Positions 42,001-45,000 of a stretch of DNA of 64,000 bases are shown here, one piece after another. Positions within the stretch are counted from its first letter, which is position 1. Each line of letters starts with the position of its first letter. The position numbers are program-made. Source of the stretch: a virus. Its lineage: Duplodnaviria > Heunggongvirae > Uroviricota > Caudoviricetes. The stretch is taken from IMG/VR virus record IMGVR_UViG_2718218452_000012; one strand, written 5' to 3'.

Positions 42001-45000
42001 CAGCCATATGGCGGACCGGTTGCCATTACGCCGTACACACTGATGCAGGCGGTGGCTATTGAAGGAGAGCCACAGGTCGGCCCTTCATCTGAGCCGGATT
42101 GGTACTACGTCATCGTACTGGCCGGGCAGTCCAATGCCATGGCTTACGGTGAAGGGCTTCCGCTGCCGGATTCATACGATGCTCCGGATCCGCGCATTAA
42201 ACAGCTGGCGCGCCGCAGTACAGTGACGCCGGGCGGGGCTGCCTGCAGATATAACGATATTATTCCGGCTGACCACTGTCTGCATGATGTGCAGGATATG
42301 AGTACGCTGAATCATCCGAGGGCTGACCTGAGCAAAGGGCAGTACGGCTGTGTCGGCCAGGGTTTACATATTGCCAAAAAACTGCTCCCGTATATCCCGA
42401 ATAACGCGGGGATCCTGCTGGTACCATGCTGTCGTGGTGGTTCGGCATTTACCCAGGGCGCGGAGGGGACATTCAGCGAGTCCACGGGGGCCAGTCAGGA
42501 TTCGGCACGCTGGGGGGTGGGCAAGCCGTTATATCAGGATCTGATTTCCCGCACAAAAGCGGCATTGCAGAAAAATCCCAAAAACGTTCTGCTGGCCGTC
42601 TGCTGGATGCAGGGTGAGTTTGACATGAGCGCCGCCACCCACGCACAGCAACCTGCGCTGTTTACAGCCATGCTGACACAGTTTCGTGCTGACCTCTCCG
42701 TGTTTAACGCGCAGTGCCATGGTGGCAGCGCTGCAGATGTGCCGTGGATTTGTGGTGACACGACGTATTACTGGAAAAATACATACGCTACCCAATACGA
42801 CACCGTGTACGGCGGGTATAAAAACAGGGAGAGTGAGGGCGTTTATTTTGTGCCCTTCATGACAGACGGTAACGGCGTCAATACCGCCACTAACGCGCCG
42901 GCAGAAGATCCGGATATTCCGGCATCAGGATATTACGGTGCGGCATCGAGAACGAATGGAAACCAGGTATCATCAAACCGCCCGACACATTTCAGTTCAT
43001 GGGCGCGCAGGAGCATTATTCCGGATCGTCTGGCAACCGCTATTCTGAACGCAGCCGGGCGCACCTCAGCCTTCATCAGTGGTAAGGCACCGGAAATCAA
43101 ACCCTCGCCCGGCGGCAACACGCCATCGGGTCCGTCTGCAGATACGTCCGTTCGCACAATCTCCCTGCTGCCGGCAGCCGGAGAGGCTGCTGCGCAGGGC
43201 TGGAGCATTAAGGATGGCGGAATTCAGTTGTCAGATGGTGTATTTAAGATCATCAACCGCATGGTGAATCCTCCTTGGAGGGGCTAAATGATCGAGTTTT
43301 AAGGGCACGTAGCGAGTTCTGTTTGATCATTGCAGAACTTAGCGGGAGGCGCCATGCGTACATCACTAGTGTTATTCCTTTTATCATTTTCCTTGTGAGT
43401 TCTGGCTGCGCATTGCGCAGCCTTTTTTTTATGACCTGCCACTGGCAGATGGTCATCCTGTGATTTGATTCCGCTTCCGGCTTTTTAACTCTGTTCCTCT
43501 ACACGGGAGAAATTCGATGTCGATTAAACATTACGATGTTGTCAGGGCGGCGTCGCCGTCAGACCTTGCGGAAAAGCTGACACACAAACTGAAAGAGGGC
43601 TGGCAGCCATACTTTTTTAATAAACAGTAAACAAAAAAGTCAAGAATTATTCATTCTGTTCTTTCATCATCGGCCACAGCAATACCACAATGCCGCAGAC
43701 CAGAGCGCCATCAGTCAGTACCAACATTATCCTGCTGGTGAAATCCATCATCACCATCACTAAAAGCAGGATCACAACAGCAAGCAGACACAGTTTATAA
43801 AACAATGTTCAGAAAACGCATTCAGCATGCCTAAGGTTCTATTCCTACGAATAGCCAACTTGCAACTTAAAATATTATTTATGCAGCCAATTAAATTCTG
43901 GTCCTTACAATATCAACCTGAAGATTCTTATCTTGTGCTGATTGATAAATGACAAACCTTTTACTACCTGCATTGAAAGAAGTAGACAAAACCAGACAAT
44001 TATCATAACGAGCAAGAACATAATACCAACCATCATTATAATTAATCATTTCATATTCTTTCTTAAACTGTGGTTTGTAATATCCTGTCAGAAATGAAAA
44101 AAGCCAAAAATATGCCACAAAAGCAATCATCACAATCTCAAAAAAATGTTTTTTATAAATGGCTTATCATAGAAGCATGATACCGATAAAAATCGCCCAT
44201 AAGATCTTATCGAAATTGTAACCGCCAGCGCAATCGCTGCTGACAGTAGCAAAAGAGGTACCTGAATCTTCTGTCTCAATATAGAAAACTCAATAATTGC
44301 CGGCACAAACAATAATTCCACAGCAAAATAAAGGCGAAATACATTTAGCTCTTGCATAGAATGTTTTCTTTTCACTGCGAAAAAGAATACAACACCAATA
44401 CCCCAACCGATAAGAAATATAGCAATGACGATAACTGCAAAAAATAAACTTCTGGCAACATCATCAACACCTGCACCTACAATCCACCATGGGAAGCCGT
44501 AGTAAAAAGAAGTACCCCATCCATAGAAATAAGCACTCCCCCATCCAAGGCATCCCATGTAGGCAATAAAAAGTGAAGAACTCCTGAGCAGCGCACCATC
44601 CTTCATAACCACCCCAATACAAGATGATAACATTGGCTTACAACTCATAACAAAAGCAATTCAATGCCGTCAAGAGGTTACAGGCTAAAAAAACTCTATT
44701 ACATAGCAGCCAGCATGTTTACCGTACAAGTACAACTCAGGGCATAAAAAAAACCCACTCGGCAGCGGGTTTATACATTTTTTACAACATACCAAATTTG
44801 CATGAAGTATATGGCTTTTAATCCAGTTTTGCAATATTTTGCTGTAAAAATGCTGCCTTTTGTTTTGAACGTGTTCTCGTCACAAGCAATAAAGCATCAC
44901 TATCAAGCTGTAGAAAAATGTGCTTCATTGCAACCCAGCGTTCAGTAAATGTCTCGGACCAGTTTTTTGTTGTCACTCCCACCAATGATGCCAGTGTCTG

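Follow-up and report, generated by a model that had tools for sequence, protein, structure and literature searches.

Cargo genes in lambdoid late operons and the phage 434 locus

In Stx phages, the stx genes occupy the Q-to-S interval, which serves as a cargo slot. Gene 68 of phage 434 lies in the same slot, i.e., after the late promoter and terminator and upstream of the SASA/NanS-p esterase and the lysis cassette, and given this shared late-operon slot, its transcription in the intact phage would follow Q antitermination together with the rest of the late operon, as judged from its position. The products differ, as stx encodes a secreted toxin, whereas gene 68 encodes a membrane protein. Relatives of this protein have been named outside phages: tfpB was reportedly first described by the Marrs laboratory in papers of 1990–91, in the Moraxella pilin inversion region. 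The Moraxella tfpB ORF is placed between pilin genes and the Salmonella relative STM1630 adjoins sseJ, whereas the copy described here is present in a prophage late operon.

The genome of phage 434 is available as GenBank OL657226 (Feiss et al., 2022, PMC9119081). The window, i.e., the whole 64,000-nt stretch of Caudoviricetes DNA analyzed here, was identical to phage 434 between positions 43613 and 44900 except for one A (1,289 nt compared), and the identical stretch covers the Q 3' end, promoter, terminator, gene 68, and TciB. The flanks common to both comprise NinG, a phosphatase, a Q fragment, LpxR, YlcG, and a Q82-like Q. In phage 434, CPT_434_68 is a single 744-nt CDS annotated as "putative membrane protein," whereas the window copy is split. 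The two sequences also differ downstream of TciB, where the window is rearranged and devoid of holin, endolysin, and spanins, all of which are present in phage 434. The variant 434B, which is viable, carries a replacement of about 5.5 kb that takes in Q, the late promoter, and the lysis region (PMC9119081), and the "434B nonhomology" feature of the 434 record spans gene 68. Since 434B is viable with the Q-to-lysis region replaced, gene 68 is dispensable for the growth of phage 434.

Organization of the gene 68 copy in the window

The features of the locus, numbered by window position, are as follows.

43252..43612, plus strand, inverted 361-bp piece with the gene 70 region and the first 32 codons of the SASA esterase (blastn)
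43647..43805, minus strand, DUF3927/TciB-like small membrane protein (PF13064, E 3e-14; PHROG 1470)
43891..44606, minus strand, whole disrupted TfpB/STM1630-family (PF27470) membrane-protein gene, equivalent to phage 434 gene 68
43891..44133, minus strand, ORF 2, 80 aa, GTG-ATG start, C-terminal fragment with helix 5 and the conserved beta-strand domain
44130..44648, minus strand, ORF 1, 172 aa from the most upstream ATG, N-terminal fragment with helices 1–4
44149..44154, minus strand, frameshift site, A6 on the coding strand (T6 on the plus strand), A7 in phage 434 and nearly all other carriers
44751..44772, minus strand, tR'-type intrinsic terminator separating Q from the cargo gene, stem AAACCCGCTGCCGAGTGGGTTT and then a T run
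44806..44834, minus strand, PR'-type late-promoter-like site by consensus match, TTGCAA-17-TATACT, overlapping the Q 3' end
44818..45591, minus strand, antiterminator Q, Q82-like (PF06323 Phage_antiter_Q, E 1e-91)

The Phage_antiter_Q gene at 44818..45591, the start of which is placed by RefSeq and the 434 annotators at MNTQYL (45507), bears out the location downstream of Q given in the earlier note. The position of the late-promoter-like site agrees with the organization of lambdoid late operons, and a terminator is annotated at the equivalent place in phage 434. The gene 68 copy is the first reading frame after this promoter and the tR'-like terminator, followed within the operon by the TciB-like gene as the next cargo. 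An Rfam scan of 43000–46200 gave nothing above any gathering threshold.

The earlier note had described two overlapping ORFs as a pair of genes, one for a multi-pass protein of 172 aa and one for an 80-aa protein with a single TM segment. The coordinates, minus-strand orientation, lengths, and 4-nt overlap were reproduced, and four strongly hydrophobic helices were found in ORF 1 and one in ORF 2; the pair of genes, however, is a frameshift artefact. Alignment with intact alleles showed that the disrupted gene measures 716 nt in the window vs. 717 nt when intact, the sole difference being one A missing from an A7 run (O26 RM10386, 780 nt; phage 434, 1,289 nt). The ATG at 44606 (MKDGALL...) is the start supported by the family, as the homologs all begin at the Met equivalent to that of MKDG and are 236–238 aa long. 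The frameshift is positioned not within a helix but in the positively charged loop that joins helices 4 and 5. As read from the sequence, the final six residues of ORF 1 (NIFLRL) are out of frame and are followed by a TGA that overlaps the ATG of ORF 2 (TGATG). Through this overlap, the A6 allele could still give rise to some C-terminal fragment, and a small amount of full-length protein could be regained by slippage on the A run.

ORF 1 and ORF 2 are very probably the halves of one gene, a copy of phage 434 gene 68 pseudogenized by a 1-nt deletion. The probability of about 0.88 given to this reading covers the identity of the gene and the pseudogene call and is separate from its biochemical role. 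The gene 68 copy is already known, being catalogued prophage cargo in a pseudogenized form, and is ordinary. The product of the window allele would most likely be only a truncated, non-functional four-helix fragment.

Family assignment and predicted structure of the intact protein

The ORFs, which had been held to belong to no recognizable family, could be assigned to Pfam PF27470 (TfpB), to the RefSeq "STM1630 family protein" (the RefSeq name for one allele), and to PHROG 1521. The repaired protein, in which the missing A is restored, matched PHROG 1521 with E 2e-154 over 222 of 222 profile positions and also matched about 100 database proteins, which places the ORFs far from chance. The PF27470 label was carried by all of its homologs (104/104), the assignment resting on precomputed labels of these homologs as the local Pfam copy predates PF27470. 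Local Pfam and NCBIfam scans of the repaired protein yielded nothing usable, while the profile search with it returned matches to the TfpB/STM1630 family only. A literature search by the protein accessions and PF27470 found no paper; "TfpB" in the literature mostly denotes other things, namely, a chemical, a nerve block, and an Acinetobacter pilus ATPase. Homology to a characterized transporter, named in the earlier note as a finding that would speak against its proposal, was searched for and not found, and a transporter reading was rejected on the lack of sequence or fold similarity to any known transporter family. A defense-system reading was rejected as well, as no PADLOC family matched the repaired protein at E up to 1.

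Members of the family, about 238 aa long, comprise five membrane helices followed by a small beta domain at the C-terminus, and both halves are conserved (27- and 41-sequence alignments). The motifs GWGSAYFYGWG..YYGFPWW at the N-terminus and D-x-[IV]-ARSL before helix 2 are present in ORF 1, and the third family motif, YKPQFKKEY...WYYVLARY, is present in the C-terminal beta-strand domain carried by ORF 2. Intact members are uninterrupted chains of ~238 aa, whereas the 1-nt deletion divides the window copy after helix 4; on its sequence, it is best described as a pseudogene of the TfpB/STM1630 family and not as an intact member.

The AlphaFold model of the intact protein (pLDDT 81, pTM 0.75) contained five long helices and five strands. 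The input was the 41-sequence alignment, in which distant members from an exhaustive profile search raised the pLDDT to 81. The intact protein is thus predicted to consist of five TM helices, a beta domain of ~55 residues at the C-terminus, and, at the N-terminus, a conserved motif rich in aromatic residues and glycine. The mean number of Lys and Arg residues was 3.5 in loop 2 and 3.8 in loop 4, with 0.9 in loop 1 and 0.7 in loop 3. These loop charges favor a predicted topology with the N-terminus inside and, accordingly, a periplasmic beta domain. This topology is uncertain in view of the Lys-rich residues right after helix 5 and the mean of 9.4 Lys and Arg residues in the C-terminal domain.

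The family alignments also bear on the idea that the split allele is functional, i.e., that the N- and C-fragments are both made, the C-fragment by termination-reinitiation at TGATG, and assemble in the membrane. The overlap of the ORF 1 stop with the ORF 2 ATG and the location of the break in an interhelical loop are consistent with such an arrangement. PHROG, moreover, keeps separate families for the two halves, 14371 and 3985, the latter being the C-terminal fragment alone, so that split forms recur in annotated phage genomes. However, the full-length homologs, from four bacterial families, are all single chains, and ORF 2 is not preceded by a good ribosome-binding site. The allele is rare (about 1%) and has no other changes along with it, suggesting a recent lesion, and the many other, unrelated disruptions of the gene look like decay. 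A working two-chain protein is therefore considered very unlikely, and the pseudogene reading is preferred.

The downstream joint and the lysis genes

The earlier note had located the ORFs where S, R, and Rz would be expected. In intact relatives, the order is the gene, TciB, usually the SASA esterase, and then holin, endolysin, and spanins; the expected lysis position is thus further downstream than had been proposed. In the window, the 434-like late operon ends at the joint 43612/43613, and holin, endolysin, and spanins are absent from the window because the 434-like sequence is interrupted there. The 361 bp on the other side of the joint follow TciB in phage 434 and are present in the window in reversed orientation with 100% identity (blastn against the phage 434 locus). 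The joint was spanned in none of the 5,426 complete E. coli genomes.

A degenerate lysis or holin-like module, as had been suggested, would be in keeping with a membrane protein encoded after Q in the late operon, as holins (class I, class II, and pinholins) are likewise inner-membrane proteins expressed from the late operon. Holins, however, are of about 60–150 aa with one to four helices and a short charged tail, and the intact gene 68 protein, which bears no similarity to them, is larger, at 238 aa, with five helices and a C-terminal domain folded from five strands. Gene 68 is also not adjacent to the endolysin gene: in phage 434, 12A, RM10386, TB354, and C7, a separate class II holin lies directly before the endolysin, 1–3 kb downstream of the gene, and in phage 434 this separate protein is a bona fide pinholin. 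Genuine lysis genes, spanins included, follow further downstream in phage 434 and related prophages. In addition, the family also occurs outside phages, where its members are solitary on chromosomes and plasmids with no endolysin nearby. A lysis function is thus exceedingly improbable. The other suggestion of the earlier note, an unrelated membrane cargo, was essentially right, as the gene is a moron between the tR'-like terminator and the lysis cassette; from its position, it would be accessory cargo outside the lysis machinery.

Distribution of the A6 allele

The family gene is present in about one-eighth of the complete E. coli genomes, and its carriers, among the records listed, are largely EHEC/EPEC-type strains. 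The exact A7 allele was found in 262 of 681 carrier genomes, the remainder differing by a SNP, while the exact A6 allele was found in 8 of 675; RefSeq labels the identical A6 allele of strains 12A and C7 as "frameshifted." Disruption of the gene is recurrent, with many independent truncations and frameshifts across E. coli assemblies.

A one-nucleotide change in the length of a homopolymer could also result from a sequencing or assembly error, the gene being intact in the organism. The unmatched joint 500 bp away, with its inverted 361-bp piece, suggests that the assembly of this repeat-rich prophage region may be imperfect. Against this, no fewer than eight complete genomes, each assembled independently, carry the A6 allele; they derive from humans, cattle, and pigs, and the prophage backgrounds differ, 12A having a Q82-like Q and LpxR and C7 a different Q. 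A run of 6–7 A is, moreover, short for a systematic homopolymer error. An error is hence unlikely, and a genuine deletion in the gene 68 copy remains the preferred reading.

The A run could, in principle, act as a switch, either by A7/A6 phase variation or by programmed −1 frameshifting or transcriptional slippage. X_XXY_YYZ is the classical slippery heptamer of −1 frameshifting, and the A6 codons, ATA AAA AAC, read from the sequence as an in-frame A_AAA_AAC. Slipping by −1 at this heptamer would bring back the regular C-terminus, with Lys replaced by Asn at one position, and both run lengths are found in nature. However, the A run is not conserved, other members having Arg, His, or other codons at this place, and neither is the two-frame arrangement, the homologs being encoded in a single frame. 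No stimulatory structure was detected, as the fold of the 78 nt downstream (−7.9 kcal/mol) gave a z of +0.62 against shuffles. Programmed frameshifting was rejected on these grounds, i.e., the non-conserved site and the lack of a downstream structure. Seven A residues are also few for an efficient contingency tract, and the in-frame length is present in 99% of the carriers. A switch is accordingly highly improbable.

Homologs in other genomes and proposed role

On ETEC plasmids, the homolog is divergent from eltAB (the LT genes), and on the Shigella pINV, it is present among IS elements. In Aggregatibacter and Haemophilus ducreyi, it stands alone. A deletion of STM1630 in Salmonella showed no growth or macrophage-replication phenotype, as described in the literature. 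The intact protein may tentatively be viewed as a cell-envelope host-adaptation factor or a factor of the exclusion/immunity type, its exact activity being putative. This view is based on its being a solitary membrane protein without catalytic motifs, carried by animal-associated Gram-negative bacteria on virulence plasmids, prophages, and islets, and on its neighbors here, LpxR, TciB, and a sialate esterase, which are envelope or host-interaction cargo.

A further-reaching proposal would regard TfpB/STM1630 as an unrecognized envelope factor of mobile virulence elements, with either an A7 on/off switch or a working two-chain split allele. It draws on the family members adjoining the LT genes, sseJ, and the Moraxella pilins and on those on pINV and in the stx slot of 434-like EHEC/EPEC prophages, and it is given little credence. 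If it were true, the window would hold a determinant of host interaction or exclusion in its "off" or "split" state and not a plainly decayed gene.

The picture of the window is corrected in that it no longer contains two unidentified membrane genes in place of the lysis genes, which has little consequence for the window itself. For the family, gene 68 of phage 434 is a convenient entry to its role, as phage 434 is a classical laboratory phage and relatives of the gene are found on the principal virulence plasmids of both ETEC and Shigella.

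The Two Reading Frames Are One Gene Broken in an A Run

Two overlapping minus-strand ORFs are present downstream of the Q antiterminator gene, in an AT-rich stretch (30–41% G+C vs. ~50% in the surroundings).

44130..44648 (−): ORF 1, 172 aa
43891..44133 (−): ORF 2, 80 aa, overlapping ORF 1 by 4 bases
44149-44154 (−): A6 run, the frameshift site, located by alignment with the A7 allele
43891-44606 (−): whole gene, starting as full-length family members do at the methionine of MKDGALL (44606)

The earlier note had taken these ORFs for a pair of genes, but they are one gene with a one-base frameshift. 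The segment 43600-44900 was found by megablast in 681 of 5,426 complete E. coli genomes, and in E. coli O26 RM10386 the corresponding DNA is a single 744-nt CDS (WP_001302581.1). The O111:H2 strain 12A is 100% identical to the window, and its CDS is flagged "frameshifted" by RefSeq. Across a 782-column three-way alignment, the sole difference was a coding-strand run of six A in the window and 12A (A6, the broken form) vs. seven in RM10386 (A7, the intact form), in the context ...TTTAT(A)nCATTTTTTTGAG.... Window 43613-44900 is also identical to coliphage 434 but for the single missing A; the phage 434 version, gene 68 (CPT_434_68), is annotated "putative membrane protein." The frameshift changes ...PFIKKHFFEIVMIAF... 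to ...PFIKNIFLRL-stop, and ORF 2 is the rest of the same protein, starting at an internal GTG-ATG. The gene was delimited as 43891-44606 because homologues, which are single chains, share a start methionine corresponding to the one at 44606. With high confidence, this copy is inactive.

A 71-nt probe centred on the A6 run had exact matches in 8 of 675 genomes; the remaining 667 differed at the run or by an additional SNP. The A7 probe was exact in 262/681, most others being one SNP off. Strains of human, cattle and pig origin are among the A6 carriers, and the allele occurs in prophages with differing Q genes (12A vs. C7). Given these multiple sources and Q backgrounds, we take A6 to be a real, recent mutation; that the missing A is a homopolymer sequencing error in the window assembly is improbable on the same grounds. 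The A6 allele contains an in-frame A_AAA_AAC heptamer, but its use as a slippage switch is unlikely, as the A run is not kept across the family and the RNA downstream folds no better than shuffled sequence. It is likewise unlikely that the split protein functions through the TGATG stop-start overlap of ORFs 1 and 2. The protein database holds many further independent truncations and frameshifts and one internal deletion of the gene in E. coli and E. albertii. Such disruptions are as expected for dispensable cargo in decaying prophages and suggest weak selection on the gene there; assembly errors may account for some of them.

Family Membership and Predicted Structure

The ORFs had been said to belong to no recognisable family. 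The repaired protein (missing A restored, ~238 aa) instead matched PHROG 1521 over its full length (E 2e-154), and sequence comparison places it in the TfpB/STM1630 family: the precomputed Pfam label PF27470, named TfpB, was carried by 104/104 homologues, and RefSeq names a 238-aa allele "STM1630 family protein." A Pfam scan gave no match because the local copy is without the PF27470 model. PHROGs also contain separate families of the N-terminal and of the C-terminal fragment alone. Full-length members have ~236–265 aa, with conservation spanning the break point of the window copy. The family is small, an exhaustive profile search finding only 76 related clusters among 1.84 billion cluster representatives. 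Members come from Escherichia, Shigella, Salmonella, Citrobacter, Klebsiella, Cronobacter, Enterobacter and Yersinia; distant ones, found by profile, from Pasteurellaceae (Actinobacillus, Aggregatibacter, Haemophilus ducreyi, Mannheimia, and Glaesserella), Neisseriaceae and Moraxella, the last labelled "protein tfpB" by JGI. Almost all named TfpB-family members are from animal-associated Gram-negative bacteria.

The membrane-protein character noted earlier was borne out by a hydropathy scan of the repaired protein, with four strongly hydrophobic helices in its first part and one in its second. An AlphaFold model (41-sequence alignment; pLDDT 81, pTM 0.75) predicted five long helices (10-36, 47-79, 84-111, 116-137, and 155-181) followed by a domain of five beta strands. 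The positive-inside rule links loop Lys/Arg to the cytoplasmic side. In the alignment, Lys+Arg per sequence averaged 3.5 and 3.8 in the loops that follow helices 2 and 4, against 0.9 and 0.7 in those that follow helices 1 and 3. This favours an inside N-terminus and an outside C-terminal domain; the orientation is not secure, since the C-terminal domain also begins with a Lys-rich stretch. Family alignments showed no invariant polar residue set pointing to an enzyme, and PADLOC and NCBIfam scans of the repaired protein gave no match.

Position in the Late Operon

The gene lies in the late operon, with Q upstream on the same strand.

44818-45591 (−): Q antiterminator (Pfam PF06323, E 1e-91)
44834-44806 (−): promoter-like site overlapping the end of Q
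44772-44751 (−): intrinsic terminator between the promoter-like site and the gene, also annotated in the phage 434 record

The promoter-like site and terminator we take to be a lambdoid late-operon leader (PR', tR'), and from this the gene would be read through upon Q action, as late, Q-dependent transcription. A weak, non-significant match to the sRNA STnc240 (Rfam) at 44742-44811 (−) (28 bits vs. 55, E 0.25) coincides with the short leader between late promoter and tR'-like terminator; lambdoid and Stx phages are known to make short PR' transcripts from a similar position.

The location had been described as the expected place of the lysis genes S/R/Rz. Phage 434 has Q followed by gene 68, TciB (a DUF3927 small membrane protein), a small membrane ORF, the SASA esterase, the pinholin, the SAR endolysin and the spanins, an order repeated in the 12A, RM10386 and TB354 prophages and, without the esterase, in C7. 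By this order, the gene occupies the cargo slot after the late-operon leader, where Stx phages carry their stx genes, and the lysis cassette lies further downstream. The holin reading, proposed as a degenerate module, was accordingly rejected, and a lysis function is discounted with high confidence. The alternative in the earlier note, unrelated membrane cargo, fits: gene 68 is dispensable for phage growth, as in the viable clear-plaque variant 434B DLP12 sequence takes the place of ~5.5 kb in which Q, the late promoter and the lysis region all lie (PMC9119081), and the "434B nonhomology" feature of the 434 record covers gene 68.

A Novel Joint Downstream

Lysis genes are missing downstream in the window because phage 434 identity ends at 43613. 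The 361 bp that come next in phage 434 (gene 70 region and first 32 esterase codons) are found inverted at 43252-43612. Ahead of them lies a second 434-like SASA esterase copy (41798-43256, cut at ~codon 447), which forms part of a further lambdoid late region.

39678-40373 (+): second Q, facing Q at 44818-45591 (−)
40584-40833 (+): three tRNA genes (Met-CAT, Arg-TCG, and Arg-TCT), downstream of the second Q
41000-41600 (+): TerB-family gene and a second DUF3927 gene, after the tRNAs

The second DUF3927 gene is 80% complementary to that at 43647-43805; the same kind of cargo slot follows the second Q, with other contents. Both novel joints (~43251-43256 and 43612/43613) fall at one phage 434 position, TTTATTAAAAAA^TCAACCGC. 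None of the 5,426 complete E. coli genomes searched spans joint 43612/43613; in strain C7 the two halves, both at 100% identity, lie 0.86 Mb apart with normal continuations. The joint is either a genuine rearrangement particular to the strain or an error of assembly. A full-length, sub-threshold match to the sRNA STnc100 (Rfam) at 43231-43433 (+) (37.6 bits vs. gathering score 47, E 7e-6) ends at a strong terminator (43404-43422); the match overlaps the small ORF annotated in phage 434 as gene 70. An sRNA may be encoded downstream of TciB instead of, or besides, a small membrane protein.

Relatives and Possible Role

The finding is an ordinary one and already known, since the annotation of a published phage genome includes the gene, Pfam, PHROGs and RefSeq all list its family, and RefSeq flags the frameshift in identical alleles. 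The broken window copy is of no help toward the function of the family. STM1630 of Salmonella was picked for study from macrophage RNA-seq results; its deletion altered neither growth nor macrophage replication, and it is transcriptionally silent in ST313 strain D23580.

Among the relatives examined the gene is always solitary and often IS-flanked, with no conserved partner. On ETEC plasmids, a homologue with 59% identity is found ~870 bp upstream of eltAB (heat-labile enterotoxin), in divergent orientation, with STb and EAST1 close by; on Shigella pINV (106 Shigella plasmid records, including pCP301), a 56%-identical one stands amid IS elements; and STM1630 adjoins the SPI-2 effector gene sseJ. 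Homologues thus adjoin major virulence determinants. A Klebsiella copy has STb, DsbA-like and AraC-type genes in its vicinity, the Moraxella copy is flanked by pilin genes on both sides, and those of Aggregatibacter and H. ducreyi stand alone. Of 50,697 phage records, those of 434 and 2B8 alone contain the gene.

The prophage with the gene 68 copy has another envelope-modifying cargo gene, which is AT-rich; its insertion, with a Q-gene fragment on one side and YlcG/Q on the other, has exactly the phage 434 arrangement.

45983-46942 (+): LpxR-family lipid A deacylase gene, on the strand opposite to the gene 68 copy

Because the gene is solitary and mobile, encodes no catalytic motifs and has LpxR, TciB and the sialate esterase as neighbours, it is tentatively suggested that the intact product could act in the envelope, as cargo of the lysogenic-conversion, exclusion or immunity type.
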